Positions 9,421 to 33,666 of a stretch of 64,000 bases of DNA are shown piece after piece. The DNA comes from Nitrospirota bacterium. Its GTDB lineage: Bacteria; Nitrospirota; UBA9217. Location: NCBI GenBank assembly GCA_963790205.1, contig CAWBNQ010000001.1:384001-448000 (forward strand), given 5' to 3'. The notes beneath the pieces were generated by a model. The model saw only the letters and a list, made by a program, of their open reading frames with translations. It did no database searches and was not told where the DNA came from. Both the position numbers and the translations under genes were made by a program. Each line of letters opens with the position of its first letter. The first letter of the stretch is position 1.

Positions 9421-10563
9421 ATGAGCCTTGTCGGCAGGCTGGAAGACCTCGCGTTACCCGACATCTTCCAGATCATCAGTCTGAGCAAAAAAACCGGTAC
9501 CCTGATCGTGCGCAGCCGCAAGGGCACGGGGATGGTCGTCTTTAAAGACGGCCAGGTGATCCAGGCGGCGAGCGACAGCATCCGGGACTCCCTCGGCAAT
9601 ATCCTTGTTTCCCAGGGCATGCTGACCGAAGCCGTGTTGTCGCAGGCACTGGCGGCCCAGCGCAAGGACGTCGATAAGCCCCTCGGCATGATACTCGTTG
9701 AGATGGGCGCCGTGCCTGCCCAGACGCTTGAAAGCGTCGTCCGGAAGCAGATCGAAGAGATCATCTACGATCTGCTTGCCTGGGAAGAAGGCTTCTTCAA
9801 TTTCGAGCTCGGCGAGATCGCGCCCAAAGACAAGATCGAGATCGACACCCAGGAGTTCCTCCTCAAGCACGGCATCAGCGCAGAGTACCTCCTGATGGAG
9901 GGCACGAGGATCCTCGACGAAAAACGGAAGGGGATGCCCAGGCCCGCTCCCGCGCCCAAGGCGCCGGGCGCTCACCACGCGAGCTACGAACCGGCCAAGG
10001 AAGAGTTCCGCACGCGCATCGAGACGGAAGCGCCGTCAAAAGCGATCAGCACGCTCAGGTCGATGTTCGACGAACTGCGCTTCCCCACGGCGACCGCCGA
10101 GGTGACGCTCCTCATTCTCCGGTATGCGAGCGAGGTGGTAAACCGCGCCGTCCTGTTCATGGTCAAGAAGGACGAAGTGCGCGGTCTCGGCCAGTTCGGC
10201 ATCGAGCTGAAGGGACATTCCGCGGACCAGGTCGTGCGCAATATCAGGATCCCGCTGAACCAGCCGTCCCTCTTTCTCCCTGTGATAGAAAACCGCCGCA
10301 GCTTTGTCGGCCCGCTCGACCAGAACGAGAGCAACAAGTACCTCATGAACGAACTCGGCGGCATGCTGCCCGATGCCGTGATGGCCATTCCGCTCATTGT
10401 TGACGGCAAGATAGCGCTGGTGGTGTACGGCGACAATCTGCCCGACCGGAAGCCCATCAGGGGGATGGATACGCTCGAGATCTTCATGAGTCAGGCGGGG
10501 ATGGCGCTCGAAAAGGCCCTTCTCGAAAAGAGGCTGGCAGAACTTCAGAAGGAGAAAAAATGA
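9421..10563 (+). CDS. DUF4388 (PatA-N-like) + MshEN-like + GAF-like protein
   Basis: N-terminal SLVGRLEDLALPDIFQIISLSKKTGTL; tandem LGxILVxxG motifs; C-terminal GAF-like region. Confidence 0.8.
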   Translation: MSLVGRLEDLALPDIFQIISLSKKTGTLIVRSRKGTGMVVFKDGQVIQAASDSIRDSLGNILVSQGMLTEAVLSQALAAQRKDVDKPLGMILVEMGAVPAQTLESVVRKQIEEIIYDLLAWEEGFFNFELGEIAPKDKIEIDTQEFLLKHGISAEYLLMEGTRILDEKRKGMPRPAPAPKAPGAHHASYEPAKEEFRTRIETEAPSKAISTLRSMFDELRFPTATAEVTLLILRYASEVVNRAVLFMVKKDEVRGLGQFGIELKGHSADQVVRNIRIPLNQPSLFLPVIENRRSFVGPLDQNESNKYLMNELGGMLPDAVMAIPLIVDGKIALVVYGDNLPDRKPIRGMDTLEIFMSQAGMALEKALLEKRLAELQKEKK

Positions 10564-10931
10564 AGAACGTTCTGATCGTCGAGGACTCCAAGGCCATTCG
10601 CTCGATGATACGGGTCTCGCTCGAAGAGGACGGGGGGTTTTTTGCGGTCGAGGCGGGCAACGGCTTCGAGGCGCTCAAGACCCTGCCCACCCGCCGCTTC
10701 GACCTTATTATCACCGATATCAATATGCCGGACATCAACGGACTGGAGCTGATCGGCTTCGTGAAGTCCAACCCGGAGTACAAGGACATCCCCCTCGTTA
10801 TCGTCAGCACGGAAAAGAGCGATGAAGACAAGAAACGCGGCCTGGCCCTCGGCGCGTCGGGCTATGTCGTAAAGCCGTTCACGAAGAAAGACCTCATGTC
10901 GATGGTAAAGAGCGTGTTGGAGGGGAAGTAG
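10560..10931 (+). CDS. cheY: CheY-like single-domain response regulator
   Basis: VED, DINMP, ST, KPF receiver motifs; overlaps the upstream stop. Confidence 0.9.
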   Translation: MKNVLIVEDSKAIRSMIRVSLEEDGGFFAVEAGNGFEALKTLPTRRFDLIITDINMPDINGLELIGFVKSNPEYKDIPLVIVSTEKSDEDKKRGLALGASGYVVKPFTKKDLMSMVKSVLEGK

Positions 10932-10933
10932 AA

Positions 10934-10967
10934 ATGCGGAATGCAGGAAGCACCCTGCATTCGCGCA
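10934..10967. repeat. Short intergenic hairpin with heptamer-like arm (AATGCGG AATGCAG)
   Basis: GAATGCAGG-AAGCAC-CCTGCATTC perfect stem after the cheY stop. Confidence 0.55.
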
Positions 10968-11037
10968 GGCGAATACTTAGACTCATTGTCGTCGTACCAT
11001 CCCGCTGGGAATCGCGAGACGGGAATCAAGGGTTGCC

Positions 11038-13041
11038 ATGGCAAAACCAGACCGGTCCATAAAAGATTTTCTTGCTGAAGCGGAGGACATCCTCGAGACC
11101 GCCACCAAGACCATGCTCGCCCTCGAGACGGAGCAAAATGCGGGGCGCTCCGCGCCCGAGCAGGTGAACGCCCTGTTCCGCGCGGTCCATTCGTTCAAGG
11201 GCCTCGCGGGCATGTTCGGGCTGAAGGCCCCTTCCGATGTCTCGCACAAGCTTGAATTCCTCCTCGACGAGGTCCGGCTCGGCAAGGTCGCGCTCAGCCG
11301 GGAGGCCCTCGATGCGCTCTTCGACACGTTGTCCCTGCTCGGCAGGCTGGTCCAGCAGGTCGGCAAAAAGCAGGAGCCGGAGGACATCAGCCCGGCGCTC
11401 GAGCTCATTGACGGCATCCTCAAGGCAAAGCCGTCCGGCGCCGCCGACCGGTCGCTCCTCGACCACATCGACATCGACCGCGGGCTCCTCCAGGTACTGA
11501 CCGAGTACGAGGAATACCGGCTCACGGAAAACATCAGGGAGCAGAAGAACCTGTTCACCCTCAAGGCCTCGTTCGAGCTTGCCGATTTCGAAACGGGCAT
11601 CAAAACTCTGAACGAGGCGCTCAAGAAAAACGCGGAGATCATCTGCACCCTGCCTACGGCCGGCGCCGCGGGGGGCGGGATCGGTTTTACGATCGTTGCC
11701 GGCGCCGAGAAAACGCTGAAAGAACTTTCCACCGCGCTCAATATGCGGAACGTATCGATCGTCCCGGTGCCCTACGTGGAAAGGCGGCGGGCCGAAGAGC
11801 CGCGTCCCGTGGATGCCGGCGCGCTCCGGTCCGTGAGCAACACCGTGCGCGTGGATATTTACCGGCTCGACAGCCTCATGAGCACCGTGGGAGACATGCA
11901 CCTGACGAAAAACATCATCGGCCGCATCGTCAAGGACCTCCGGGCCGCGCAGGGGTTTGCCCACCTTTCCATGGATCTGCACAAGGCGCAGCGGAACCTC
12001 GAGCGCAAGCTGAACGAGCTGCAGGAAGGCATACTCGAGGTCAGGATGGTGCCGATCGGCCAGATCTTCACGCGCCTCGCGCAAGTGGTCAGGAAGTATG
12101 CAAAAGAGGCCGGGAAGGAGATCGACCTCCAACTCTCGGGCGAGGACACCGAGCTCGACAAGCTCATGATCGAGGACCTGGCCGATCCCATCATGCATCT
12201 TATCCGGAACGCCATCGACCACGGCATCGAGCCCCCGGAGGCGCGCCGGCAGGGAGGGAAGCCGGAGCAGGGCAGCGTGAAGCTTTCGGCGTATCCCAAA
12301 GGCAACCACGTGGTGATCACCGTCGAAGACGACGGGGCGGGGATGGACCCGTCGAAGATACTCGCGAAGGCCGTGGAAAAAGGAGTGCTTTTGCCGGACC
12401 ACGGGCTCGACCCGGAGGCCGATCGCAAGGAAATTCTGGACCTCATTTTTCTTCCCGGGTTCACCACCCGTGAAACAGTGACGGAAATCTCGGGCCGAGG
12501 CGTCGGCATGGACGTGGTAAGGAAAAACGTGTCGAAGCTCTCCGGGATGATCGATATAGAAACAGAGCTCGGCGCGGGCAGCAAATTCATGCTCACGCTT
12601 CCGATCACGCTTGCAATCATTAAAGCGCTCATCGTTGAAGCGGGCGGCCAGGTTTTCGCGGTGCCGCTCAGCTCCGTGCTCGAGATCATCCAGACGACGG
12701 AAAAGCAGGTGGAGACCGTCGAGACGCGTGAAGTGATGGCCATTCGTGATGAAACCGTTCCGCTCCTCAGGCTCACGCAGGTGTTCAAGCTGCCGCCGAA
12801 GACGGAGGGGGGGTCGTTATATCTGATCCTCGTGGGGCTGGCCGAGCGCCGGCTGGGGATCGTCGTTGACAGCCTCCGCGACCAGCAGGAGATCGTGATC
12901 AAGCCCCTGGGGAAGCGGCTGACTGACCTGCCGGGCATCGCCGGCGCCACGGAGCTGGGAGACCAGCGCGGCGTCGTGCTCGTTCTCGACGTCGAGTCGC
13001 TGATCGAAGGGGCGATGAAGAAGCTGGTGGCGCGGGCTTAG
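11038..13041 (+). CDS. cheA: Chemotaxis histidine kinase CheA (Che5/alpha-group-like)
   Basis: HPt ALFRAVHSFKG; HLIRNAIDHGIE; DDGAG; SGRGVGMDVV; C-terminal CheW domain. Confidence 0.97.
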   Translation: MAKPDRSIKDFLAEAEDILETATKTMLALETEQNAGRSAPEQVNALFRAVHSFKGLAGMFGLKAPSDVSHKLEFLLDEVRLGKVALSREALDALFDTLSLLGRLVQQVGKKQEPEDISPALELIDGILKAKPSGAADRSLLDHIDIDRGLLQVLTEYEEYRLTENIREQKNLFTLKASFELADFETGIKTLNEALKKNAEIICTLPTAGAAGGGIGFTIVAGAEKTLKELSTALNMRNVSIVPVPYVERRRAEEPRPVDAGALRSVSNTVRVDIYRLDSLMSTVGDMHLTKNIIGRIVKDLRAAQGFAHLSMDLHKAQRNLERKLNELQEGILEVRMVPIGQIFTRLAQVVRKYAKEAGKEIDLQLSGEDTELDKLMIEDLADPIMHLIRNAIDHGIEPPEARRQGGKPEQGSVKLSAYPKGNHVVITVEDDGAGMDPSKILAKAVEKGVLLPDHGLDPEADRKEILDLIFLPGFTTRETVTEISGRGVGMDVVRKNVSKLSGMIDIETELGAGSKFMLTLPITLAIIKALIVEAGGQVFAVPLSSVLEIIQTTEKQVETVETREVMAIRDETVPLLRLTQVFKLPPKTEGGSLYLILVGLAERRLGIVVDSLRDQQEIVIKPLGKRLTDLPGIAGATELGDQRGVVLVLDVESLIEGAMKKLVARA

Positions 13042-13047
13042 GAGAAA

Positions 13048-13173: not shown

Positions 13174-13184
13174 CGGTATAAAAG

Positions 13185-13979
13185 ATGTACAAAGAATTTT
13201 ACGGACTGACGGAAAAACCGTTTAACAAAACGCCGGACCCGCGGTTTCTCTACCAGAGCGCCAAGCACGCCGAGGCGCTCGCGAGACTCCAGCATGCGGT
13301 GGACGAGCAGGACATCGTTCTTTTGACCGGTGAGATCGGTTCAGGCAAGACGACGCTGTCGCGGGTGCTGATCGATTCTCTGGATGAGAGCTATCGCCCG
13401 CTGCTCATCATTAATCCCCGGCTCTCGCCGGCACAGCTGCTGCGCACCGTGGCCCTGCGTCTCGGCATGGACGATTCCGGCCGGCACCGGCACGGTCTCC
13501 TGGAGGGGATCAACGCCAAGCTGTACGAGTTCTTCGAGGCGGGCAAGCAGCCGGTGCTCATCATCGACGAAGCGCAGCTGATCCCGGGAAAGGCGACCTT
13601 CGAGGAACTGCGGCTTTTGACGAACTTTCAGCTCGATGACCGCAACCTTCTGGCGCTCGTGCTCATCGGCCAGACCGAGCTCAGAGAGCGGCTGGACCGG
13701 CGGCAATATCGGGCGCTCCGGCAGCGCATCGGGATGCAGTACCATTTGGGGCCGCTCGACGGGGAAGAAACGCGGGAGTACGTGAAGCACCGGTTAAGCG
13801 TCGCGGGCAGGGAAGCGCCGCTCTTCGAAGAGCAGGCGCTTGCTCTCCTGTTCGAGCACTCGGGCGGCGTGCCGCGCCGCATCAATACCATTGCCGGCAA
13901 TGCGCTCATCGAGGGATTCGGACAGAACGCGGAGGTCATCGGTCCGGAGATCATCGAGAGCGTGGTGAAGGACGGGTAA
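13185..13979 (+). CDS. ExeA/GspA-like AAA ATPase
   Basis: MYKEFYGLTEKPFNKTPDPRFLY N-terminus; Walker A GEIGSGKT; Walker B LIIDEAQ; GVPRRIN. Confidence 0.92.
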   Translation: MYKEFYGLTEKPFNKTPDPRFLYQSAKHAEALARLQHAVDEQDIVLLTGEIGSGKTTLSRVLIDSLDESYRPLLIINPRLSPAQLLRTVALRLGMDDSGRHRHGLLEGINAKLYEFFEAGKQPVLIIDEAQLIPGKATFEELRLLTNFQLDDRNLLALVLIGQTELRERLDRRQYRALRQRIGMQYHLGPLDGEETREYVKHRLSVAGREAPLFEEQALALLFEHSGGVPRRINTIAGNALIEGFGQNAEVIGPEIIESVVKDG

Positions 13980-13986
13980 TGAGGAT

Positions 13987-14092: not shown

Positions 14093-14098
14093 AGAACC

Positions 14099-14910: not shown

Positions 14911-16923
14911 ATGGAGAGGAAGACAAACAGAACGGTATTCGCTTTACTTGCCGCGCTGTTATCCGCTGCCCTGCTCGGCGGATGCGGCAGCAGTACGAAT
15001 GAAGGGGTCTTGCCGGCAAGTGGGAACACAGGCGCAGCCACCACGGTGGGCATCAACAACTGCACCACCTGCCACACCGTGCAGACGGCCGACTGGCTCA
15101 CGACCAAGCACGCCAATGCCGTGAACGGCCCCTATAGCGCGGGCTCGCCGTCCTTGGGCGGCAATTATAATGTCAATGTCGCACTATGCGGGCAGTGCCA
15201 CGACCCGAACGGCGACAGCGCCAACATCATTGCCGCGGGCTATATCGGCAGCGTTCCCCGGCCTATCGTGGGGTGCGAAGCGTGTCACGGCGGGGGCAGC
15301 CTGCACAACGGCTCCGGGCCGATATCGCTCCTGTCGAATACGACGGGAACGGTCCTCGGTACGGTCGCGGTCTCGGGACAGTTCGTCATGTGCACGAATT
15401 GCCATGAGCTGCTCGATTCATCGGGAACGACAACGAATCCGAGTCCTGCGCATTTAAGTACGCCGCCTACAGGTTCGCAGTACTTCATCACGGACTCTCA
15501 TTTTGCCGTGGGCGCATTTGATGCGGCAGGCAATTTTACGGCAGGTACAGGCACCACTACCGGCGCCAACATCACCGGCTATGCCATGGATTACAATAGC
15601 CCCACAGTCTGTACGGACTGCCACAACCCTCATGGCACCGCTGATATCAACCGGGACTGGGCCGCATCAAAGCATGCCGACAAACAGGGAAGTGGCAACA
15701 ACGGCGGTCCGTGGGCCAGAGATAACTGGTCCTGTGACGGGACCAGTTCGCTGGCATGCGGGGTAACCACGACACTGATCAATGACCGGCGCTACTGTCA
15801 GCGCTGCCATACGAAGACCGGATTCGCCGCGTATGCCGATGCGATCAGATCCGGTAATACAGCGCTGTTCAAGGCGCTGGATACCGGGATCTACCCTCCA
15901 GGGTTGTCCTCCCCCGTGGCGTACTCACAGACCTGGAAGCCCGAGATGCTGGAGTGCCTGGGCTGCCATACGGATAACCTCGGAAATATGAGGGACCCCG
16001 GCGCTTTCACGGCGACCTATGACTACCGGACCACCGTGGCCGGTGCTCCCTCAGGCTCGCCCAATTTCGTGTACGCACATGCAACGTTCCGATATCCTGA
16101 TCTGGGCGGCGCGAACGTCTGCATCCTCTGCCACAGCGGCAGAACCAATGGCGCCACGATCAAGAACCTGAACACCGATCCGACCTTGTCTACGGCTGAT
16201 TTCAGCAGTTTGAAGGCCGCCGACAGCCACCATTTCCCGGTTGCGGCAATTATGTTCAAGGGGTTGGGATACGAATATGCCGGAAGGGACTATGACAATC
16301 CCTCGTCGTACAAGCATTTCAAGATCGGCACCCCGGCAGTGCCGAACACCGGCACGAACGGTCCCTGCGTGGGCTGCCACATGTTCCGGTCCAACGGACC
16401 CGCCAGCCATTTATTCGAAACCGTGAGTAAGACCGGCAGTACGATCACGGACGTGTCGAGCGAGGTCTGTGTTAATTGCCATGCAGGCTCCAGCACATCG
16501 CTTGCCGCCTTGGTGGATGCGGAGAGACTGGATTTCACCTATGCGCTCAGTATTTTCAGTGCCTTGACCAATTCCACCAATGCCGTGCACCCGCCTCTTA
16601 CGAGCAGCACCATCGACTGGCGTGCGCCAGGAGATACGGACCGAACCGGCAATACGACCGGCAAGAACAACCTCGGCGCTTATTTCAACTTCGCCTCTCT
16701 GAACGGCAACGAGATGGGGGCGTACGTCCATAACAGCAGGTACACGAAGCGATTGATCTATGACTCTCTCGACTGGCTTGACGACGGCGTGCTGAACAAT
16801 TCGGTGGGCACGACCCTATCGGCCTTCTGCAGCAGCGGCGCCGCAACAGCGAACTGTGCGGCGGGGATGACCTATCTTCTGCCGAACGGAGTCAGGCCGG
16901 GCGCGCCTTCGGAACGACCCTAA
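14911..16923 (+). CDS. Outer-surface multiheme c-type cytochrome lipoprotein (10 CxxCH; OmcB/OmcC-like)
   Basis: Lipobox LLGGC; 10 CxxCH motifs counted; C-terminal GAYVHNSRYTKRLIYDSLDWLDD resembles the Geobacter OmcB-family terminus; Thr/Gly/Ser/Asn-rich. Confidence 0.88.
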   Translation: MERKTNRTVFALLAALLSAALLGGCGSSTNEGVLPASGNTGAATTVGINNCTTCHTVQTADWLTTKHANAVNGPYSAGSPSLGGNYNVNVALCGQCHDPNGDSANIIAAGYIGSVPRPIVGCEACHGGGSLHNGSGPISLLSNTTGTVLGTVAVSGQFVMCTNCHELLDSSGTTTNPSPAHLSTPPTGSQYFITDSHFAVGAFDAAGNFTAGTGTTTGANITGYAMDYNSPTVCTDCHNPHGTADINRDWAASKHADKQGSGNNGGPWARDNWSCDGTSSLACGVTTTLINDRRYCQRCHTKTGFAAYADAIRSGNTALFKALDTGIYPPGLSSPVAYSQTWKPEMLECLGCHTDNLGNMRDPGAFTATYDYRTTVAGAPSGSPNFVYAHATFRYPDLGGANVCILCHSGRTNGATIKNLNTDPTLSTADFSSLKAADSHHFPVAAIMFKGLGYEYAGRDYDNPSSYKHFKIGTPAVPNTGTNGPCVGCHMFRSNGPASHLFETVSKTGSTITDVSSEVCVNCHAGSSTSLAALVDAERLDFTYALSIFSALTNSTNAVHPPLTSSTIDWRAPGDTDRTGNTTGKNNLGAYFNFASLNGNEMGAYVHNSRYTKRLIYDSLDWLDDGVLNNSVGTTLSAFCSSGAATANCAAGMTYLLPNGVRPGAPSERP

Positions 16924-16956: not shown

Positions 16957-17964
16957 ATGGAACGATTTCTGAAATGGAGAACATGGCTCGTGCTCGGCAC
17001 GCTGGGCGCCTTCTTTGCGGCCGGATGCGCGGCGCTCAAGGATTCGCGGCCGATCCTGCCGATCAAGGATTATGAAAAGATGATCGCCGGCCGCCTCGAC
17101 GCGGACTACATCGGCACCGACAACTGCCTCAAGGCATGCCATTTTCATGACAAGATCCGGCGCGATTTCGACCTCTCGACCATGGGCGCGCAGCTCTCGC
17201 GTGAATCGGGACTGCCGCTCGTCAATTGCGAGAGCTGCCACGGGCCGGGGAGCCTCGCTGTCGACCTGCTGACGCCGGAGCGGCTCGCCGCCGATGCGAA
17301 AGCCGGGAGACGGTCGGCGTGCGACTTCAAGACCTTCATCGACATCAAGAACCTTCCGGCGCAGGCGCGGTCGCTCATCTGCCTCAAGTGTCACTCGGCC
17401 AATGCCACGTTCAACCTGCACAACTGGAACGCGGGCACTCATAACCTTGCCGACGTGTCCTGCTCCGACTGCCACCGGATCCACGGGGGGCACAATCTGA
17501 AGGTCAAGCTCAGGGACACCGCGGAGATGTGCGAGCGCTGCCACCAGCAGGTGAAAGCGGCCTTCACCCTGCCGTACCACCACCCGGTGCCGGAGAAGAA
17601 GGTCTTCTGCACCGACTGCCACGATCCGCACGGCGGCCAGGAAAAATGCCTGAGGAGGGAGACGATAAAGGCGACCTGCACCCAGTGCCATGCGGAAAAA
17701 GAAGGCCCCTTTATCTACGAGCACGCGGACGTAACCGAGGACTGCAGCGCGTGCCACACGCCGCACGGGTCGGTGAACAACAACCTGCTCACCCTTCGCG
17801 AGCCGTTCCTCTGCCTGCAGTGTCACCCAACGCACTCGAGCAGTATCAGCATGACGACGGCGGACCAAAAGCGCGCTTTCTACACGCGGTGCACGGACTG
17901 CCATTCACAGATCCACGGTTCCGACCAGCCGTCAGCGAGCGGCAAAGGCAACTTCATACAATAG
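16957..17964 (+). CDS. DmsE/MtrA-family decaheme cytochrome (lipoprotein)
   Basis: Lipobox AAGC; 9 CxxCH + 1 CxxxCH (CLKACH); EKEGPFIYEH, CHTPHGS, CHSQIHGS motifs typical of MtrA/DmsE. Confidence 0.92.
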   Translation: MERFLKWRTWLVLGTLGAFFAAGCAALKDSRPILPIKDYEKMIAGRLDADYIGTDNCLKACHFHDKIRRDFDLSTMGAQLSRESGLPLVNCESCHGPGSLAVDLLTPERLAADAKAGRRSACDFKTFIDIKNLPAQARSLICLKCHSANATFNLHNWNAGTHNLADVSCSDCHRIHGGHNLKVKLRDTAEMCERCHQQVKAAFTLPYHHPVPEKKVFCTDCHDPHGGQEKCLRRETIKATCTQCHAEKEGPFIYEHADVTEDCSACHTPHGSVNNNLLTLREPFLCLQCHPTHSSSISMTTADQKRAFYTRCTDCHSQIHGSDQPSASGKGNFIQ

Positions 17965-17977: not shown

Positions 17978-19882
17978 ATGAAAAAGACCATTCTTACACT
18001 TATTGTATTCATGCTCTGGGCCTCCCTGGCGGCCGCGGAGCAGGCCGCGAGCGACAACACGGCGGAGGCCCAGTCAACGGAAGCTCTCGGCGCCGATTTC
18101 GAAGGCCGCGTGGGTGCGGGCTACCGCTGGATTACGCAGAGCGGCAATCCCATCGCCGGCGAGTATGACTTTATCAAGTCTTCCGCCACGGGCGCCCTGG
18201 ACCTCGAGTACGATCCGCTTCCGCACCGTTTTGTGCTCGAATCCTATTTTTTGAACAACAAAGATTATTTCGGGGAGATGGATTACGCATACCGGGACGT
18301 CGTACTCTTCGATATGTATACCCGCGGGCTGTTCCATAACCTGGGCCATTACAGCTTCGGTCCCCCTTCGACGACGCCCGGAGTGAGCTTTACCGACAAG
18401 GACCCGGGGGCCGAGTACGGCATCGAGAACCAGCTGCGCAGGGCGTTCATTCGCTTCAAGACCCCTGACTTTCCTTTCCATCTCTATGCAGAGGTCATAA
18501 CGGTCGACCGGGAAGGCGAGATCCAACAGCGCTTCCTGCGCGAATTTTCCTCGGGGATTGACATGGTGTCGCAGTCCCGGGACATCGACTGGAACACGCA
18601 GCAGGTCCGCGTGGGCGCGAACAGCCACCTGGGGCCGGTTGAAGTAGACTATAGCCACATGGAAAAGAAATTCGAACCGCTCACGAGCCAGGAGCTTTTC
18701 GACGTCTATCCTCCCTCCACCACGCCGATACCTCACAACCTCACTCCCGAGCTCAAATCCTCGTCGGACACGGTGAAGCTCCATACCTCCTATTCGGGCA
18801 GGCTGGTGCTGGCGGGCACGTATACGAACGGGGACAAAAAGAACGAGGACAGCGGGGCGAAAGTGAATTTTTGGAACTCGGCTGGAGATATCACTTTTAT
18901 GCCGGTGACCAGTGTGATCATGGCCGTCAAATACCGGCACTACAATACCGACGCAAGCAACCCGGGCGCGGTGAATAACGTGACCCCGTTCGGCACGACG
19001 GTTGTCACTGTCCGGGACTCAATCTCTTCGTCAAGGGACGTTGTAACCGGCACGCTCCGGTACCGGGCGACCGACCGGCTGACGCTCAACGGGGAGTATG
19101 TGGAGGATACTACCGATCGTGCAAACGCCGAGGTTTTTTGGGACGTGCCGGAGAAGACCACGAAGGGAACGGCAAAACTCGGGCTCACCTACCGCGTCAT
19201 GAACAAGGTCACCCTCCGGGCGGACTACAGCCGGACCACGGTGGACAACCCTGCCTATGACACGGACCCCGACAAGGCGCAATCCGCCCGCGCGTCCATA
19301 ACGTGGGTGCCGACGCCCCGGTTCAACACCCTGCTCAGCTACAGCGCGGTGCGTGAGTCGCGGGACCTCCTGGGCGCGCCGCTGGGCGGGGGCAGCAGAG
19401 AAGCGTCGCGCGATCAGGGGCTGGCCAGCTTTACCGTGCTGATGAGCAACCGGTCATCGATAACGATAAGCTATGCCTACTTTAAAAACAAGGTCGACCA
19501 GACGGTCTCCCTTGACAGCGGATCCGGGCCTTTCGCCCTCGACTCGGGCGTTCCTTACGACGATATCTCCCACGTGGGATCGATCGTTCTCGCCGTGGCG
19601 CCGGTTGACGGGGTCAATCTTACCGCATCGGGAAGCAGGAGCTATTCGCGCGGCAATTTCAACCTCGCGGGGGCCGGCCCGGTGACCAATGTGGCGGGTA
19701 TTGCGGAGTTGTCGGACATGAAGGTCATCGACAGCACCTATGCGGCAGGCATCGAGATGCAGCACAGCAGATACGTGGGCAGCGAACTGACGTACCAGTT
19801 CCGGCGGTATGAAGACCAATTGGACAATACTCTGGACGGCACGGTGAAGACGGTGCTGGCCACCCTGTCCATGAAGTGGTAG
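17978..19882 (+). CDS. MtrB/PioB-like outer-membrane beta-barrel of a porin-cytochrome conduit
   Basis: Signal peptide; amphipathic beta-strand pattern; C-terminal aromatic residue (LSMKW); directly follows the decaheme gene. Confidence 0.82.
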   Translation: MKKTILTLIVFMLWASLAAAEQAASDNTAEAQSTEALGADFEGRVGAGYRWITQSGNPIAGEYDFIKSSATGALDLEYDPLPHRFVLESYFLNNKDYFGEMDYAYRDVVLFDMYTRGLFHNLGHYSFGPPSTTPGVSFTDKDPGAEYGIENQLRRAFIRFKTPDFPFHLYAEVITVDREGEIQQRFLREFSSGIDMVSQSRDIDWNTQQVRVGANSHLGPVEVDYSHMEKKFEPLTSQELFDVYPPSTTPIPHNLTPELKSSSDTVKLHTSYSGRLVLAGTYTNGDKKNEDSGAKVNFWNSAGDITFMPVTSVIMAVKYRHYNTDASNPGAVNNVTPFGTTVVTVRDSISSSRDVVTGTLRYRATDRLTLNGEYVEDTTDRANAEVFWDVPEKTTKGTAKLGLTYRVMNKVTLRADYSRTTVDNPAYDTDPDKAQSARASITWVPTPRFNTLLSYSAVRESRDLLGAPLGGGSREASRDQGLASFTVLMSNRSSITISYAYFKNKVDQTVSLDSGSGPFALDSGVPYDDISHVGSIVLAVAPVDGVNLTASGSRSYSRGNFNLAGAGPVTNVAGIAELSDMKVIDSTYAAGIEMQHSRYVGSELTYQFRRYEDQLDNTLDGTVKTVLATLSMKW

Positions 19883-25378: not shown

Positions 25379-27526
25379 ATGAGGGCGCTTAAGGAAATAC
25401 TAGCAGGCCTGACGCTGAAAAAAAAGATTGAGTCCAGCATGGGCCTGAAGCTTGTGGTCGCGCTGGCCGCCGTGATTTCCGCGCTCATGGTCCTTGGTAC
25501 GATCTTTGTGGCCCGCATGCTGCAGGAGGACCAGTATCGCAGCATCGAAACGCGCGGAAGAGAACTGGGGGTGTTTCTCGGAAAAGCGGCCACGGACGCG
25601 CTTCTCCACAAGGACATCCCCGCGCTCGACGGTCTCGTCGCTGAGGCGGTAAATTCGCAGGATGTGTTCTATGCCTATATCGTGGACGACTCAAGCGCGG
25701 TATTGAATAACATCCAGGCCAGCTTCAACCGCACGAATCCCGCCATGCGGTCCTTTTTATCCGATAATCAATCCGGCGATGTGGCCGTGCTCGCCGCAAA
25801 GGCGAAGGAAACACTGGACGCCATCGAGACGCAGTCAGACATCATGCTCGGCGCCACCCGCCTCGGCAAAGTCAAGATGGGTTTTTCCCGGGAAAGGGCC
25901 AAGAAGGCCGCGCGCAACGTGGTCTGGCTGCTGCTCGGAACGAGCGCCGCGATCGTGCTCGTTCTGTCAACGCTGATCTTTGTCCTGACGCAGCGGATGA
26001 TCGTCCTTCCCACCCGTCAGGCGGTATCGGTGGCATTGGGTACCGCCGAAGGCGATCTTACCCGGAGCGTTCGCGTGCGGTCCGTCGACGAGCTCGGGAT
26101 GCTCGGGCGGGGCCTGAACCGGATGATCCTCGGGCTGAAGGACATGATCGGCAGCATCCGTGAAGCTGCCCGCCATATGGTGTCGGTCCAGGGCGAGGTC
26201 AGGGGAATATCCACGAAGTTGACCTCGGGGAGCCAGGTGCAGTCCGAATCAGTGGAAGAAGCGGCGTCATCGGTGAATGAGATGCACTTCTCCCTGAAGG
26301 AAATAGCGGCCAGCATGGATGATCTTCACGCGACATCGGAGCGGACCTCGTCATCGGTTATCGAGATGGCGGTCTCGGTGAACGAAGCGGCCAAGTCCGT
26401 GTCCGACCTGTCGGGGTTTATCGACGAAACGTCATCGGCCATTACCCAGATGTCGGCCGCAATGCGGCAGATAGCGGAGCATGTCGGGATGCTGTCTTCC
26501 ACGGCCGAAGAGACCTCGGCCTCCGCCCTCGAGATCAGCGCCTCGGTGAAAGAAGTGGAGGCAACGGCCCGGCAGTCGGCGTCTCTTGCCGAGACGCTTG
26601 CGGAGGATGCCCAGGGGCTGGGCGTACGCTCTATCGAAAAGACCATCGAAGGGATGGGCCGCATAGAATCCAATGCGCGACGGACCGCCGACGTCGTGAA
26701 CCGCCTCGGCGAGCGCGCCGAGAGCATCGGCGGCATCCTGACCGTGATCGAGGATATCACAGACCAGACCGGCCTCCTGGCCCTGAATGCCGCCATCCTT
26801 GCGGCCCAGGCCGGCGAACACGGCAAGGGCTTTGCCGTTGTTGCCGCCGAGATACGGGAACTGGCGAACCGCACGGCAGCGTCCACGCAGGAAATCGGGA
26901 AGCTCATCGCCGCGGTGCAGGCTGAGTCCCGCGAGGCCGTTGACGTCATGAAAGAAGGGGTCGCATTCGTGGAAGAGGGGGTCCACCTGGCCACCGGCGC
27001 CGGAGATGCCCTGAGAAAGATCCTCGAACAGGCTGGATCATCGCGGGACATGAGCCGGAGCATCAACACGGCGGCGACAGAGCAGGCGCGGGGGATCAAG
27101 CAGGTGAGCGAGGCGGTCGACCGGATCAACGAGATGACCCATCAGATCGCCAGGGCCACCAACGAGCAGAAGGCGGGCAGCGAGCAGATCATGCAGGCCG
27201 CCGAAAAGATGCGGGAGCTCACGCGATTTGTCAAAAACTCCAGTGAAGAGCAGGCAAAAGCCGGAAAGGACATCACTCAGGCGGTCGAGACCATAAGCAC
27301 GAAGATCGGCATGGTGAACCGGGCCACGGGAGAGGTCCAGCAGGGAAGCGACCTGATCGTCAAGGCAATTGAACGGATCAAGGAGATCGCCAGGGCCAAT
27401 GCGGACCTGGCTTCGGGACTGAACAAGGCCATGGAGGCCATGGCGGCACAATCGACCCAGCTCGGCAAGGAAATCGCAAAGTTCAAGATGGCCGACGCGG
27501 GCCGGAGCGGGGCACAGGGATCATAA
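25379..27526 (+). CDS. Methyl-accepting chemotaxis protein 3
   Basis: 2 [29 protein letters not shown]. Confidence 0.95.
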
Positions 27527-27531: not shown

Positions 27532-28053
27532 ATGGCGAAAGAAAAGAAGACTGCGGCAGCCGAAGACACCGTACAGCTCGTGACGTTTCAGGTCGGGACC
27601 GAGGAATACGGACTCGATATAAGCTTCATCACCGAAGTGGTCCGGCCGCTCAAGATCACGCCCCTTCCCAAAATGCCGGCGTTTGTCGAAGGCGTGATCA
27701 ATCTGCGCGGCGTCATCATTCCCGTCGTCGACCTGCGGAACCGCTTTGAGTTGAAGACGATCAAGAATGACCCGAGAAAAATGCGCATGATCATTGCGCG
27801 CGGCGCCGTTCACGGGAGCGCCGGAACGTCCGGCGACCTTCTCGGGCTCGTTGTCGACAACGTGGACGAAGTGATCCATGTTCCAAAAAAGGACATCGAT
27901 CCCGCGCCCGGGGCCGCCACGGGCAGGAATGCGGACTTCATCACCGGCATGGGCAAGGTAGGCGATCGGCTCATTATCCTCCTTGACATAACCAGGATTT
28001 TGAGCCAGCAGGAGCGCGTTGCGCTGGCGGAGGCGGGAAATGCCGAATCTTGA
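27532..28053 (+). CDS. cheW: CheW
   Basis: LVTFQVGTEEYGL, ITPLPKMPAFVEGVINLRG. Confidence 0.95.
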   Translation: MAKEKKTAAAEDTVQLVTFQVGTEEYGLDISFITEVVRPLKITPLPKMPAFVEGVINLRGVIIPVVDLRNRFELKTIKNDPRKMRMIIARGAVHGSAGTSGDLLGLVVDNVDEVIHVPKKDIDPAPGAATGRNADFITGMGKVGDRLIILLDITRILSQQERVALAEAGNAES

Positions 28054-30034
28054 TTTGCTGGGCAGGAAACTGCAGAGCCGCGACGCGGAGGAGCGGCGGG
28101 AGGCGGCTATTGACCTCGGCCGCGCCGGCCGCGCCGCCGTGCCTCTCCTGTTCCGCGCCATGAGCGATGCCGACTGGCGCGTCCGAAAGACGGCAGTCGA
28201 GGCGCTCGTCGCCGTCGGCGGCACCGAGGTTATTGAGGGCCTGGTCCGGCAGCTTTCGTCGCACGATAATGCCGGTGCGCGGAACTCGGCCATTGAAGCG
28301 CTCGTTCACATCGGCGCAGAGGCCGTGGACGGGCTGCTGGCATCGCTGGCTACGCCGGACCCGGACGTGCGGAAATTTATCGTCGACATCCTCGGCGATA
28401 TCAGGGACCCGCGCGCCGTGCCGCCCCTGATCAACAGGCTGGAAGACCCTGACGAGAACATCCGCGTGGCCTCGGCCGAGGCCCTCGGAAAGATCAAGGA
28501 CCGGCGCGCTGTGGACGCCCTGCTGGGCTGCCTCACGCGCAACGACCAGGGCTGGCTCGACTACGCCGCCGCCGAGGCCTTGGGCGAGCTCGGCGACGAA
28601 CGCGCCCTCGGTCCGCTTCTTGCGGCGCTCGGCAGGAGCAGTCTCCGGGAGCCGGTGCTCGACTCGCTCGGGAAGATCGGAAATGTCAATACTCTTGCGC
28701 CGCTCATCTCGGGGCTTGCCGATCCGCTCAGGATCGTGCGCGAAGTCTCGATGGTGGCGCTCACCGCGATCCATCGGAAGAGCACCCCGGCGGACCGGGG
28801 GAAAATGGTCCAGGCCGTGCGCGCGGGCATGAGCGAACGCGCCGTCGATTTTCTCGAAGAGATGCTGCAGGCGAGCGCAGGGGAACTTCAGAAGGCGGCC
28901 ATCGCAGGCCTCGGCTGGGCCGGCAGAGAGAGGTCCATTCAGAAGCTGCTTGCGCTTCTTCAGGAGGAAGATATGGAGGAGCCCATGGTCCAGGCGCTCG
29001 AAACCATCGACGGCAACCATGTGCCGGTCCTCTTCGGGTATCTATCGGACGAGAACGCACTTGTACGGCGCACCGTGGCCCGCGTGCTGGGCAATACCGG
29101 CCGGCGTGAAGCCGAGGACCCGCTGATTCGGCTGCTTTCCGATGAAAACGGGCACGTGCGGAGTACTGCGGTAGAGGCTCTTGGGCAGTTGCGAAGCAAA
29201 AAGGCGGTTGCCGTGCTTCTCAAACTACTCACCGATGAGTATGAAAGCGTGCAGGAGTCGGCAATCCGCGCGCTCGCTGAGATCGGCGACGAGTCCGTGC
29301 TCGACAGCCTGGTAAAGGATTTTACGTCCCGCGATGCGCATATGCGGAAGAATATCGCGCTCCTGCTCGGAAAGTTTTCGAGCGGCAAAGCGGCCGACGC
29401 GCTCGCCTTTGCGCTCAAAGACGAAGAGCCGGAAGTAAGAAAGGCCGCGGTGCAGGCGCTTGGTAATCTCCCGGGGGGAGACAGGACGAACCGATCGCTT
29501 ATGCTGGCCGTTGCAGACGACGATCCCGAAGTGCGCATGCTTGCCGCTGAAGCGTTCGGCAAGGCAAGAAGACCGGATGCAGTCGAAGCGCTCATATCCC
29601 TGCTCGAGGACCACGACCTCTGGGTCCGGGCCGCGGCGGCGCGGAGCCTGGGGAGGGCTGGCGGTGAGCGGGTGAGCGCGGCGCTTGCGGCACACCTCGA
29701 TGCGGCATCCGATATCTTTCTCCTTGCCCTTGTCGAGGTGCTGGGCAGGCTCAAGGCCGAAGAGGCCCTTGCGCCCCTCCTGAAACTCGCCGACCATGAC
29801 GATCCGGAGGTGCGGAAGACGGTGCTTGCGGCGCTTGCCGGGTTCCGCTGGGAGGCCGTGCAGCGGACGGTCATCGCGCGGCTCTCAGACCCGCACTGGA
29901 GCGTTAGGAAAGCGGCGATCGAGGTCCTGAAGCAAAAACAAGACGCGGCAGCGGGACCTCTCCTGGAGCGGATCGCCGAGAGTGACCCGGACGGAACCGT
30001 GCGCCATGCGGCGAAGGAAGCGCTGGGAAAATAA
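28040..30034 (+). CDS. HEAT/PBS-lyase repeat protein
   Basis: Many L.D.D..VR..A..ALG repeats; ATG at 28040 overlaps the cheW end. Confidence 0.9.
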   Translation: MPNLDLLGRKLQSRDAEERREAAIDLGRAGRAAVPLLFRAMSDADWRVRKTAVEALVAVGGTEVIEGLVRQLSSHDNAGARNSAIEALVHIGAEAVDGLLASLATPDPDVRKFIVDILGDIRDPRAVPPLINRLEDPDENIRVASAEALGKIKDRRAVDALLGCLTRNDQGWLDYAAAEALGELGDERALGPLLAALGRSSLREPVLDSLGKIGNVNTLAPLISGLADPLRIVREVSMVALTAIHRKSTPADRGKMVQAVRAGMSERAVDFLEEMLQASAGELQKAAIAGLGWAGRERSIQKLLALLQEEDMEEPMVQALETIDGNHVPVLFGYLSDENALVRRTVARVLGNTGRREAEDPLIRLLSDENGHVRSTAVEALGQLRSKKAVAVLLKLLTDEYESVQESAIRALAEIGDESVLDSLVKDFTSRDAHMRKNIALLLGKFSSGKAADALAFALKDEEPEVRKAAVQALGNLPGGDRTNRSLMLAVADDDPEVRMLAAEAFGKARRPDAVEALISLLEDHDLWVRAAAARSLGRAGGERVSAALAAHLDAASDIFLLALVEVLGRLKAEEALAPLLKLADHDDPEVRKTVLAALAGFRWEAVQRTVIARLSDPHWSVRKAAIEVLKQKQDAAAGPLLERIAESDPDGTVRHAAKEALGK

Positions 30035-30913
30035 ATGTTTGAAGAACAGATCATTCCGCTGCCGGATGATGTTTTCAGGCTCCTCCGGGACTTCATCCAC
30101 GGCTATTGCGGCATCTTTTTTGACGACGGTTCCAAGTTCCTTCTGGAACGAAGGTTGTCGCGCCGGCTTGAGCAGCACCGCCTCAAGAGCTTCGAGGAGT
30201 ACTACCACTTTCTTCGCTACGACCGGAAGCGGGAAGAGGAACTCACCGTTCTCGTCGACAACCTGACTACGAACGAGACCTACTTTTTCCGGGAAAGCCC
30301 CCAGCTTCGCGCCTTTTCCGCGGAAATCCTCCCCGAGCTGCGCCAGACCCTTGCCGACCGGAAGACGCTCCGGATCTGGAGCGCCGGCTGCTCCACCGGA
30401 GAGGAACCCTATACCATCGCCATCCTGCTGCTCGAATCGGGCGAATGGTGGCGTGACTGGCAAGTGGAGATCCTCGGCAGCGACATCAACCAGCGGGTGC
30501 TGCACACGGCGCGCAAGGGAGTGTATAAAAAGAGCGCCCACCGCGCGACCAGCCCGGAGATGCTGTCGAAATATTTCATCGAAGAGGAAAAAGGAAATTA
30601 CCGGATCATCGATACGGTGCGCGAGCTGGTATCGTTCAGTTCCCTGAACCTCCTCGATCCTTATAAGACCAGCCTGATCAGCAACGTGGACGTTATCTTC
30701 TGCAGGAATGTCATCATTTATTTCGACAAAGAAGCAAAGAAAAAAGTGATCTCCAGTTTTCACGATAAGCTCCGCGAGGGCGGCTATCTGCTCCTCGGGC
30801 ATTCGGAATCATTGATCAATATCTCGAACGCCTTTCTGCTGCGCACACTCAAGAACGACATGGTGTACCAGAAGCCGCTCAGGGAGAAAATTGAAATTTC
30901 AAATTTCAAATAA
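30035..30913 (+). CDS. cheR: Chemotaxis methyltransferase CheR
   Basis: TTNETYFFRE, IWSAGCSTGEEPY, IFCRNVIIYFD, LLLGHSE. Confidence 0.96.
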   Translation: MFEEQIIPLPDDVFRLLRDFIHGYCGIFFDDGSKFLLERRLSRRLEQHRLKSFEEYYHFLRYDRKREEELTVLVDNLTTNETYFFRESPQLRAFSAEILPELRQTLADRKTLRIWSAGCSTGEEPYTIAILLLESGEWWRDWQVEILGSDINQRVLHTARKGVYKKSAHRATSPEMLSKYFIEEEKGNYRIIDTVRELVSFSSLNLLDPYKTSLISNVDVIFCRNVIIYFDKEAKKKVISSFHDKLREGGYLLLGHSESLINISNAFLLRTLKNDMVYQKPLREKIEISNFK

Positions 30914-31001: not shown

Positions 31002-32078
31002 GTGAAAAAGATCAAGGCATTGATTGTTGACGATTCCGCGTACAACCGCATGGCCATTGCGCAGATGCTTGCCAGCGACGCGGGGATCGAGGTCGTCGGG
31101 AGCGCCCACGACGGCGTCGATGCCATTGCGAAAACACTCCGCCTCGCTCCGGATGTGATCACGCTCGACCTCGAGATGCCGAATATGGACGGCTTCACCT
31201 TCCTGCGGTGGCTCATGAAGGAACGGCCGACCCCGGTGCTCGTACTTTCGTCGCGCTCCGACAGCCGCAGCGTCTTCCGCGCCCTGGAGCTTGGGGCCGT
31301 CGATTTCCTGGCCAAGCCCGAGGCCCGCATCTCCAAGAGCATCGAGAGCGTCCGGAGCGAGCTGGTGGCCAAGGTCCAGTCGATTTTGAACCTGGAGATG
31401 TCGAAGGTCAAGTCCGCCATCGCGCTTCTCACCGTTGAAAAAAAGGCGCCCTTGCCGCGCAAGGAGGACGATGCCCGGTTCGAGAAGAGCCCGATCGAGG
31501 TGGTGGCCATCGCCTCGTCTACCGGCGGGCCGCCCGCGATCCAGGCCATCCTCACCTCCCTTCCCGCGGATTTCGGCGCAGCCATCGTGATCTCACAGCA
31601 CATGCCCGCAGGGTTCACCCGGAGTTTTGCCGAGCGGCTGAACAAGCTTTCTCCTCTCGTGGTGAGTGAAGCCGCCGCCGGGGACCGGCTGGCCCCCGGC
31701 ACGGCGCTGATCGCACCGGGAGGATATCACCTGATCGTAAGGAGGGACCGCACGGGCCTGGTCGCCGAGCTTGCTCCGCGGAGCCCCTCTGACAAATATG
31801 TGCCGTCCGCCGACCGGATGATGATCTCCGTGGCCGAGGCCTGCGGGGCCGCAGCGCTGGGCGTCGTTCTCACGGGTATGGGCAGGGACGGCTCCGAAGG
31901 CGCGGATGCCATCAAGAAAAGAAAAGGACAGTGTCTGGCTGAGAGCGAGGAAAGCGCGGTCGTCTTCGGCATGCCGCAGGAAGCCATACGCACCGGAGCC
32001 GTGGACAGCGTATTGCCGCTCAATAAAATGGCCGAAGAGATAGCGTTGCGCTGCCGTACAGCCAAAAACAGCGCCTGA
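31002..32078 (+). CDS. cheB: Chemotaxis response regulator methylesterase CheB
   Basis: Receiver + ASSTGGP, QHMP, LTGMGRDG. Confidence 0.96.
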   Translation: MKKIKALIVDDSAYNRMAIAQMLASDAGIEVVGSAHDGVDAIAKTLRLAPDVITLDLEMPNMDGFTFLRWLMKERPTPVLVLSSRSDSRSVFRALELGAVDFLAKPEARISKSIESVRSELVAKVQSILNLEMSKVKSAIALLTVEKKAPLPRKEDDARFEKSPIEVVAIASSTGGPPAIQAILTSLPADFGAAIVISQHMPAGFTRSFAERLNKLSPLVVSEAAAGDRLAPGTALIAPGGYHLIVRRDRTGLVAELAPRSPSDKYVPSADRMMISVAEACGAAALGVVLTGMGRDGSEGADAIKKRKGQCLAESEESAVVFGMPQEAIRTGAVDSVLPLNKMAEEIALRCRTAKNSA

Positions 32079-32255: not shown

Positions 32256-33089
32256 GTGATGGACAAGGAAACAGCGCCTATCTCCAAAAAAGTCGAAGAG
32301 TTTCTCCAGGTCTTCAAAAAGGGCGAGGAGTTTACCCAGGAGCTTCTGAAAGAGAACGAGAAGCTCCGATACCGGGTGGCCCAGCTTGAGGAACTCACGA
32401 AACTGTCCGGCAAGGAAGGCGACTTCAAGCTGCATTCCATGGAAGAACGAATCAGGCTCCTCGAGGACGAGAACAAGAACCTTCTTGATCGCTTCCATCT
32501 GGTGGAAGAGGAGAACAAGGATTTTGCCAACCGCTATGTGGAAGTAGAGGCGGAGAACAACAACCTGGCGAACCTGTACGTTGCCAGCTATCAGCTCCAC
32601 TCGACCCTGGACTTCAACGAATCACTCAAGATCATCCTCGAGATCGTCATGAACCTGATCGGGGCCGAGGAGTTCTCGATCATGATGCTCGATGAAAAGA
32701 CCAACGAGCTTACGATCGTGGCCCAGGAGGGCATGGGACCCGAGGCCAGGGCCAGCGTAAAACTCGCCGAGGGCATCATCGGCAAAGCCGCCAAGGCGGG
32801 TGAGGCGTATTACCGAGACGGCGACCCCACGGACCTGACGGGCATCGATTACCTCCACCCGATCGTCTGCATTCCCTTAAAGATCAAAGAGCACGTGATC
32901 GGCGTGATTGCGATATACAAATTGCTGGTCCAGAAACAGGCGTTCACGAACGTCGACTACGAATTGTTCTCGATGCTGGCCGGCCATGCGGCCACGGCGC
33001 TCTTTTCATCGAAGCTCTATTCGCAGTCCGAACGAAAGCTTACCACGATCCAGAGCTTCCTTGATCTGTTGAAAGAAAAACAAAACTGA
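32256..33089 (+). CDS. Coiled-coil + GAF domain protein
   Basis: N-terminal coiled coil; LANLYVASYQLHSTLDF; CIPLKIKEHVIGVIAIY; GHAATAL. Confidence 0.85.
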   Translation: MMDKETAPISKKVEEFLQVFKKGEEFTQELLKENEKLRYRVAQLEELTKLSGKEGDFKLHSMEERIRLLEDENKNLLDRFHLVEEENKDFANRYVEVEAENNNLANLYVASYQLHSTLDFNESLKIILEIVMNLIGAEEFSIMMLDEKTNELTIVAQEGMGPEARASVKLAEGIIGKAAKAGEAYYRDGDPTDLTGIDYLHPIVCIPLKIKEHVIGVIAIYKLLVQKQAFTNVDYELFSMLAGHAATALFSSKLYSQSERKLTTIQSFLDLLKEKQN

Positions 33090-33222
33090 AGACATCGTTG
33101 ACTCGCAGATGGCCGAACGGTGGCGTCTCTCGGCGTAACGGTTTAAAATTTAAAAATAAAAACGTAGATCTGGTAAAAATCCCGTCCAAGGGATCCCCGG
33201 CACTGCTTTAGGATTTTGGTAA

Positions 33223-33254
33223 ATCCGTCTTTATCTGTGCTCATCCGTGGTTAA
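33223..33254. repeat. Decamer tandem array (ATCYGTGYTC-like), single arm
   Basis: ATCCGTCTTT ATCTGTGCTC ATCCGTGGTT AA. Confidence 0.65.
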
Positions 33255-33285
33255 ATGCTTTTTTGAGGATAAACGGAGGTTTGAA

Positions 33286-33666
33286 ATGCCCGAATACAAT
33301 TTTCTGGTGGTTGAAGATTCCCCGACGATGAGGCAGCTCATATCGTTCGCCCTGAAGCGGATTCCGGGGAGTAAGATTGTCGAAGCCAATGACGGTATCG
33401 ACGCCCTCAAGAAGCTCTCGACCCAGAAGTTTGACATTATCCTGACCGACATCAATATGCCTATCATGGACGGCCTGAAGCTCGTGTCCATGGTGAGGAA
33501 CGACCCGGCGCATAAAACCATACCGATCATCATTATTACGACCGAAGGGGCGGAAGAAGACCGGAAGCGCGGCCTCGCCCTCGGCGCGAACGCCTATGTA
33601 CCCAAGCCCATCCAGACGGCCGACCTCCTGAATATCGTTAATCAGATTTTGGGGAGCAAAAGCTAG
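33286..33666 (+). CDS. cheY: CheY-like response regulator
   Basis: GGAGG RBS; VED, DINMP, TT, KPI. Confidence 0.92.
   Translation: MPEYNFLVVEDSPTMRQLISFALKRIPGSKIVEANDGIDALKKLSTQKFDIILTDINMPIMDGLKLVSMVRNDPAHKTIPIIIITTEGAEEDRKRGLALGANAYVPKPIQTADLLNIVNQILGSKS

Follow-up and report, generated by a model that had tools for sequence, protein, structure and literature searches.

The chemosensory cluster 5 (Che5) of Geobacter sulfurreducens, the OmcI-type operons of Geobacterales and the MtrCAB conduit of Shewanella are close described counterparts of the locus studied here, a run of 18 genes at positions 9421-33666 of a 64,000-nucleotide stretch of DNA (hereafter the window; GenBank assembly GCA_963790205.1, contig CAWBNQ010000001.1, positions 384,001 to 448,000) whose host is an uncultured groundwater-type Nitrospirota bacterium. 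In this run a Che5-type (beta-group) cluster encloses a cassette made of a decaheme cytochrome, an outer-membrane barrel, a periplasmic binding protein (SBP) and a chemoreceptor (methyl-accepting chemotaxis protein, MCP), and we put at about even the chance that this cassette acts as a cross-envelope sensor leading to a likely non-flagellar output. It is still debated how electroactive bacteria perceive electron acceptors or donors that are insoluble, and the locus offers a candidate outside input, consisting of wire, binding protein and Cache receptor, inside an orthologous Che5 cluster.

In the accessible parts of the published descriptions, alpha-group che clusters carry an HD-domain gene and are restricted to Geobacteraceae, beta-group clusters have no mcp genes, and unpublished extracellular-matrix effects of G. 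sulfurreducens cluster 5 are mentioned (Tran 2008, PMC2577667). EsnB and EsnC (GSU2220/GSU2222) are required for growth on electrodes and not on Fe(III) oxide, and EsnA, the one receptor found for Che5, has no periplasmic domain suggesting outside input (PMC5585712). Soares et al. 2024 (PMC11492766) report Geobacterales operons in which an OmcI-type decaheme and a MtrB-like porin are accompanied by an ABC ATPase and an SBP, and suggest transport; the available parts of that paper make no mention of receptors. The feature in the window is real and conserved, each of its parts is of a known kind, and its three-gene core is in print with another interpretation in what could be consulted of PMC11492766. 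No description of the conduit-SBP-chemoreceptor unit was found in the literature searched, which left most subscription papers and supplements outside.

The window cluster and its conduit

The 18 genes all lie on the + strand, in the order DUF4388-cheY-cheA-ATPase-cheW-cytochromes-barrel-SBP-MCP x3-cheW-HEAT-cheR-cheB-GAF-cheY:

9421..10563, +, DUF4388 protein with an MshE-type motif for binding cyclic di-GMP (c-di-GMP) and a GAF-like C-terminus, first gene of the cluster (PF14332; NF053729, 44.7 bits vs cut-off 38)
10560..10931, +, cheY1, single receiver domain (PF00072)
11038..13041, +, cheA of Che5/beta-group type, with Hpt, dimerisation, HATPase and CheW domains (Pfam; tree)
13185..13979, +, ExeA-like AAA ATPase in the GSU2221 position (PF13401; GSU2220-2222 order, PMC5585712)
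14099..14767, +, cheW1 (PF01584)
14911..16923, +, 10-haem lipoprotein cytochrome, predicted surface cap (10 CxxCH and lipobox; OmcB-family Atlas cluster 0.94)
16957..17964, +, MtrA/DmsE-family decaheme lipoprotein, predicted to lie inside the barrel (TIGR03508; 6R2Q chain A)
17978..19882, +, MtrB-like outer-membrane beta-barrel, modelled with 26 strands and without a plug domain (AlphaFold; Foldseek 6R2Q_B)
19891..20820, +, SBP of the conduit-associated clade (PF04392; no permease or ATPase gene adjoining)
20817..22910, +, MCP1, with a single Cache domain, HAMP and a 64-heptad signalling domain, overlapping the SBP stop codon
23176..25200, +, MCP2, with a small periplasmic domain, HAMP and 64 heptads (Pfam; NF053592 below cut-off)
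25379..27526, +, MCP3, with a periplasmic domain without Pfam family, HAMP and 64 heptads
27532..28053, +, cheW2 (PF01584)
28040..30034, +, HEAT-repeat protein (PF13646)
30035..30913, +, cheR (PF01739)
31002..32078, +, cheB (PF01339 and PF00072)
32259..33089, +, coiled-coil and GAF protein (PF13492)
33286..33666, +, cheY2, final gene of the cluster (PF00072)

Pfam annotation and the sequence of 9421-33666 confirm the gene order and co-direction described in an earlier reading of the bare sequence (the original prediction), together with the gaps it gave between cap cytochrome and decaheme (33 nt), decaheme and barrel (13 nt) and barrel and SBP (8 nt), and the ATGA overlap of SBP and MCP1, which lies at 20817-20820, the SBP beginning with the ATG at 19891. 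The likely true starts of MCP2, HEAT, GAF and cheY2, as read from the sequence, are 23176, 28040, 32259 and 33286.

The identification of the outer genes as Che5-type in the original prediction is borne out by two results. The adjacency of cheW, ATPase and cheA is that of GSU2220-2222 in the accessible part of PMC5585712, with cheA, cheW, cheB and cheR all present, and the window CheA falls in an 18-row clade with the CheAs of same-layout Desulfuromonadia clusters (SH-aLRT 98), apart from three other CheAs encoded in the genome, in a quick IQ-TREE tree of 22 rows whose references were picked by similarity and include no named flagellar CheA. The same outer gene set and order occur in five Desulfuromonadia genomes (G062, G080, G106, G152 and G089), which differ from the window in having a receiver-domain gene between the cheW genes where the window has three 64-heptad MCPs, the SBP and the conduit. 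G. sulfurreducens Che5 had been called alpha-group, which is wrong, as it belongs to the beta group (PMC2577667, accessible in part). Alpha-group membership was rejected for the window cluster as well: there is no HD domain among the 18 genes, and the host is a Nitrospirota. With its three MCPs the cluster departs from the absence of mcp genes in the beta group, of which it is an orthologous variant and not a strict member.

The further statement that conduits lie elsewhere in G. sulfurreducens is only partly right. What does not hold is seen in G080, a genome with the Che5 layout, where the gene directly after cheY encodes a 27-haem cytochrome and where, ~7 kb from cheY, there is a decaheme-barrel pair of the GSU2203/GSU2204 families; these true family members, at a separate locus, are paralogues of the window conduit. 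A link of Che5 to cytochrome expression, also stated in the original prediction, was not found in the searchable papers, where Tran 2008 gives the matrix effects only.

The decaheme and barrel are predicted to form an MtrAB-type porin-cytochrome conduit that transfers electrons across the outer membrane. The decaheme, which carries a lipobox, nine CxxCH motifs and one CX3CH, exceeds the DmsE-family cut-off (TIGR03508, 246 vs 192) and matches MtrA (6R2Q chain A) at E 2.5e-42. The adjoining large barrel is only barely above the Pfam MtrB_PioB threshold (PF11854, 23.2 vs 23) and has no TIGR03509 match in the NCBIfam search; its AlphaFold model (pLDDT 88) has 26 strands and no plug, and the best PDB fold match of that model is MtrB (Foldseek 6R2Q_B, E 4.6e-19, TM 0.78). 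The window barrel is the sole such barrel found in its own genome with the barrel query. Elsewhere (G000 C3:284000-318000) a large group of multihaem cytochrome genes (4-13 haems, three of the proteins 820-1090 aa long) occurs together with two-component genes and what is probably a second barrel; this is a candidate respiratory conduit region.

OmcK/OmcL (GSU2203/GSU2204; PMC10553843, accessible in part) was considered as the identity of the pair, given that the GSU2204 family is the only NCBIfam match of the barrel and the GSU2203 family the second-best match of the decaheme. It was rejected, as both fall below the cut-offs (decaheme 235 vs 325; barrel 128 vs 350) and the window barrel is without CxxCH.

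The cap lipoprotein has 670 aa, 10 CxxCH and a PF22113 domain match. Its best matches in G080 are 12-haem proteins of 744 and 768 aa, and no MtrC appears among its PDB sequence matches, hence by its closest relatives it appears OmcB/OmcC-like rather than MtrC. The tandem porin-octaheme-dodecaheme layout is the signature of OmcB/OmcC. In comparison with Shewanella MtrCAB (6R2Q), the window therefore shares the MtrA-family decaheme and the 26-strand MtrB fold, and differs in a cap that is not MtrC by sequence and is optional, in the lipobox and the one CX3CH of its decaheme, and in the attached SBP and sensors.

Conservation in Nitrospirota and Desulfuromonadia

The synteny check proposed with the original prediction gave a clear answer: MtrA/MtrB-like genes between cheW paralogues recur in many genomes of two Nitrospirota families. 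A random insertion or misassembly, for which apparent frameshifts elsewhere in the assembly and dispersed repeats in several intergenic gaps could be cited, is ruled out by the identical nested order in independent genomes of the host's own family and of a second one, and its probability is close to nil.

In the host's own family the barrel is present in 15 of 24 sampled relatives besides this genome, and no conduit was seen without the SBP, which comes next in 16/16 loci. Upstream of the decaheme these loci have the cap (12), cheW1 directly (3) or a contig end (1). Among the nine relatives without barrel the slot is readable in six, two of which (G008, G009) keep SBP and MCP1 and four MCP1 without SBP, so that the losses are nested: the cap is lost in three, the conduit is lost with SBP and MCP1 kept in two, and the SBP is also lost in four. 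A barrel reduced to a C-terminal remnant in G008, and a remnant of the SBP C-terminus in G001 (18 aa, E 0.049) directly before MCP1, lie at the expected places and indicate secondary loss.

Across the phylum the barrel profile matched 61 of 251 genomes (68 matches), from which 37 regions were hand-picked to span families; two end at a contig edge and 35 were judged. In 31 of these 35 loci the gene immediately after the barrel encodes the SBP, and 28 of the 31 cassettes contain a membrane sensor: 21 have an MCP1-type receptor, 2 a different MCP and 5 a histidine kinase whose periplasmic part carries a CxxCH (4 of them Pfam-checked). At L023, the SBP is duplicated ahead of a second MCP. The sensor type is swappable while a sensor is kept. 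The surface cytochrome cap is present in 12 and absent in 18 of the 30 loci with both sides visible; the conserved unit is the decaheme-barrel-SBP(-sensor) cassette, to which the cap is optional. A barrel-profile search of representative sequences returned 326 clusters at E up to 1e-30, without gene context.

The kinases at L158, L160 and L165-L168 have their CxxCH at residue 89; the periplasmic stretch around it looks helical, has no Pfam sensor match and is possibly an undescribed haem sensor domain. Other cassettes have a free-standing PF12974 gene between SBP and haem kinase.

The cassette adjoins Che5 genes in the host's own family and in all seven genomes of family f3 that have the barrel (five of them with both flanks visible), and in 0/25 loci of other families; embedding is thus not needed for cassette function. 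The Che5 cluster of these other families is at a different site and can carry a haem-c receptor of its own between its cheW genes (3/3 such clusters fetched). In other Nitrospirota the place between the cheW genes is taken by haem receptors with PF21563, and in G168 and G192 such receptors immediately precede the decaheme. The placement of receptors between the two cheW genes, to which the original prediction gave weight, is hence present here but is not special: it is the general Nitrospirota state, even without any conduit. Che5-type CheR was found in 14/14 barrel-bearing genomes with an MCP1-type sensor vs 9/14 without one (28 genomes, whose kinship makes them non-independent). Kinase-type cassettes were expected to be confined to genomes that lack Che5; this held only partly, a Che5-type CheR being present in G269, G293 and G361 and absent from G367 and G333.

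Decaheme matches were obtained in 51 of 121 Desulfuromonadia genomes. The barrel follows the decaheme in 30/30 loci returned, and the SBP follows the barrel in all 14 loci fetched more widely of the 51 matching genomes, which were found by the decaheme; at one further locus (L048), the SBP is upstream of the decaheme. Decaheme, MtrB-like porin and SBP in one run are what defines the OmcI-type cassette, and from this architecture, not from gene names, we infer that these Desulfuromonadia loci are those meant in the accessible parts of Soares et al. 2024 (PMC11492766). Likeness to the window lies in the decaheme-barrel-SBP order, in decahemes that are 52-57% identical to that of the window and in a single SBP clade. 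When 29 Desulfuromonadia genomes were searched with cheA, clusters that the GAF gene later revealed were missed, and the blanks of the cheA search were not used.

The ATPase beside the cassette in Geobacterales shares 63-70% identity with one encoded between mlaE and mlaD, located upstream of the same cassette in another genome, and because of this identity it is probably MlaF, a lipid-transport neighbour rather than a partner of the SBP. Most Desulfuromonadia loci (L095-L108) keep an MlaF-like ATPase gene immediately before the decaheme, even without mlaD beside it.

A possible sensing role and its alternatives

The SBP, whose sole Pfam match is PF04392, has neither cysteine nor haem. In a FastTree tree with midpoint root (56 hand-chosen rows), the conduit-linked SBPs of the two phyla form one clade of 46 rows, 45 of them conduit-linked and one not, with support 100. 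A TrpX-type ABC importer was considered and rejected, as the SBP scores 119 vs a cut-off of 390 and no permease or ABC ATPase gene is in the cassette; the fold itself is shared. Both remaining PF04392 genes of the host genome are found downstream of TonB-dependent barrels, one precedes a Cache-HAMP kinase and a regulator, and neither adjoins a permease; other distant SBP homologues in relatives are mostly upstream of HAMP sensors. Because PF04392 genes elsewhere follow TonB-dependent barrels and mostly precede HAMP sensors, this suggests a barrel-SBP-sensor theme in which the decaheme here replaces the plug. The SBPs of stand-alone cassettes (alignment A1 rows L030, L032, L034, L036-L039, L041, L043, L044 and L047) share a CX4C pair that the window SBP is without, possibly a redox-sensitive disulfide.

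All three MCPs have 32 heptads from HAMP end to hairpin tip, i.e. 64H, and probably belong to the class called 40+24H in Geobacteraceae in the available part of PMC3543383, by our equivalence. MCP1-MCP3 contain no CxxCH, in which they differ from the haem-c chemoreceptors GSU0582/GSU0935, for which periplasmic redox sensing by an MCP is proposed (PMC8396549, accessible in part). Many Che5-linked MCPs of relatives have a phosphonate-binding-type periplasmic binding protein domain (PF12974) fused at the cytoplasmic C-terminus (L084:13098-15950, L091:12846-15749, L120:8133-10919, L146:11786-14653).

MCP2 weakly resembles YfiN-like sensors adjoining YfiR-like genes (NF053592, 51 bits vs cut-off 194). 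With Pseudomonas YfiBNR, as described in the accessible part of PMC4655355, the window shares a common logic: a partner in the outer membrane, a relay in the periplasm and, in the inner membrane, a sensor whose periplasmic domain is PAS-like. Membership was rejected and the analogy only is retained, since the window relay is a PF04392 protein, its only Pfam match, and not YfiR, the outer partner is a cytochrome-barrel and not a lipoprotein, and the sensors are MCPs with output to CheA and not to a diguanylate cyclase.

The SBP is weakly predicted to bind the MCP1 Cache dimer. The predicted complex scores 0.57, where the mark was reached by 116/157 solved complexes and 2/215 mismatches in calibration, and only 18 solved complexes and both mismatches lie at 0.60 or below. 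The best of three controls scores 0.01; at least 93% of contacts are shared between runs, and the partner pLDDT is 90 or higher. The job is unlike the calibration set, and memory of solved SBP-sensor complexes may lend a pass.

If the cassette is a sensor, the decaheme would span the outer membrane inside the 26-strand barrel, as its MtrAB likeness predicts, and would equilibrate with outside minerals, humics or partner cells, here via the OmcB-like surface cytochrome. Since the SBP has no cysteine or haem, it would either dock redox-dependently where the conduit faces the periplasm or bind a redox-active small molecule whose state is set by the wire, for both of which co-inheritance is the argument. 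Relaying the state of the wire, the SBP may then bind the MCP1 Cache dimer, and the 64-heptad MCPs would signal via CheW1/CheW2 to the window CheA and on to CheY1, CheY2 and CheB. Type IV pili, surface attachment or matrix would be the output, with a possible c-di-GMP input via the DUF4388 protein. This output is suggested by that protein's c-di-GMP motif, by four PilT genes above cut-off in the genome, and by flagellin and FliG, which were not found in the 98.3% complete, 14-contig genome while control genomes did match; the cluster had been predicted to be non-flagellar, and this stands. These two blanks contrast with at least five CheA loci in the host genome. The wire may also carry respiratory current where a surface cytochrome is present.

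Several findings weigh against this sensing reading. The link between SBP and conduit is drawn from gene neighbourhood and co-inheritance, four of the 35 Nitrospirota barrel loci (two of them second copies) are without SBP, and three of the 31 cassettes have no adjacent sensor. In contrast with the window, the Desulfuromonadia cassette has no adjoining cap gene, is followed by an MCP in only 1/14 loci and by a lone receiver domain in 10/14, and lies at least ~43 kb from Che5 in the 13 genomes that have both on one contig. The window conduit is complete, cap included, like a respiratory conduit, and the SBP model closely fits closed aromatic-amino-acid binding proteins (TM 0.94 to 3LKV), so that its ligand is possibly a plain small molecule. 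In the absence of a haem motif the MCPs cannot read redox via a c-type haem of their own, hence any redox input would be indirect. MCP1 has, moreover, inputs or uses independent of both SBP and conduit: the expectation that its Cache domain decays after SBP loss failed, the domain being intact in four relatives whose cluster has neither (45-59% identity, vs 50-70% where the SBP is present). The proposal of the original prediction that the receptors read the redox state or a ligand of the conduit accordingly stands in part, favoured by a conserved cassette with SBP and sensor and by the weakly predicted SBP-MCP1 contact, and opposed by receptors without haem and by an embedding that is unnecessary.

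Sensing is nonetheless ranked ahead of the alternatives. The nearest of them, which we consider clearly less probable, is a respiratory (or electron-uptake) conduit that is co-regulated with, but not wired to, an SBP-MCP pair sensing a dissolved small molecule, both serving redox-active surfaces. The full cap-decaheme-barrel set around the only such barrel found with the barrel query agrees with this, as do the MtrAB likeness, the kinship of the cap to OmcB/OmcC-like cytochromes, the retained ligand-binding fold of the SBP, and the survival of MCP1 without conduit and SBP in four relatives and of SBP and MCP1 without conduit in two. It accounts poorly for an SBP of a conduit-specific clade that stays beside the barrel in two phyla even without an adjacent MCP (14/14 in Desulfuromonadia), for sensors that change type while conduit and SBP remain paired, and for a cap absent in 18/30 loci. 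In an uptake system, barrel and decaheme would reduce or admit a metal or solute, the SBP would feed an ABC importer and the receptors would watch the loaded SBP. Although the SBP fold is like that of ABC importer binding proteins, paralogous SBPs lie behind TonB-dependent receptors, and transport is suggested for the Geobacterales operons in the accessible parts of PMC11492766, we judge this improbable, as the window cassette lacks an ABC permease or ATPase gene, the SBP is far below the TrpX cut-off, the Geobacterales ATPase is probably MlaF, and the plugless barrel would be filled by the decaheme. Slightly less probable still is that the SBP-fold protein is an assembly or structural partner of the conduit (chaperone or periplasmic cap) without signalling, the receptors being mere neighbours. 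This would fit decaheme-barrel-SBP as the deepest conserved unit and the persistence of MCP1 without SBP; it is opposed by SBP and MCP1 kept without conduit in G008 and G009, the SBP duplicated before a second MCP in L023, the SBP/MCP1 overlap, the four barrel loci without SBP, and the predicted SBP-MCP1 complex, which, though weak, points the opposite way.

More tentatively, and with less than even confidence, we propose that the wire serves mainly for sensing, as a redox counterpart of the TonB-receptor/SBP/sensor module, in which a dedicated SBP clade would carry the outside redox state to swappable inner-membrane sensors, either Che5 receptors or haem kinases, across Nitrospirota and Desulfuromonadia, and which is maybe the missing extracellular input of the electrode-sensing Che5 pathway of Geobacter. 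MtrAB-like genes in genome surveys may then mark sensing and not metal respiration, and an alternative is offered to the transport reading published, in the parts available, for the Geobacterales operon (PMC11492766). As the same decaheme-barrel-SBP cassette is present in Desulfuromonadia, a class with genetically tractable members, the idea is testable by existing genetics.

Further features of the window and the host genome

Between 8500 and 28400, 4 promoter-like sites were detected vs 4.3 expected and 15 terminator-like sites vs 19.3 expected, and no obvious common motif was seen by eye in the cheW1-to-cytochrome gap across 19 loci. Dispersed AT-rich repeats with 6-22 BLAST matches in the genome (self counted) lie in the gaps at 10932-11037, 13042-13184, 13980-14098 and 22911-23175 and account for the length of some intergenic gaps. 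In the genome, dsrA (G000 C14:63709-64855), a cheA (C3:695406-697419) and an MCP (C1:317816-319802) each appear split into two overlapping frames, probably by assembly indels, and the GAF gene has another copy (75% identical), accompanied by a cheY, at G000 C13:12370-13733, apart from the cluster. A second, unrelated che cluster (STAS, cheA, cheW, cheR, cheD, cheB and two receivers) follows 2.5 kb downstream, at 36173-43087 of the window. Positions 45036-63044 hold folate and Wood-Ljungdahl genes (MTHFR-like, ACS gamma, CODH/ACS alpha-beta) with NuoF/NuoG-like neighbours.

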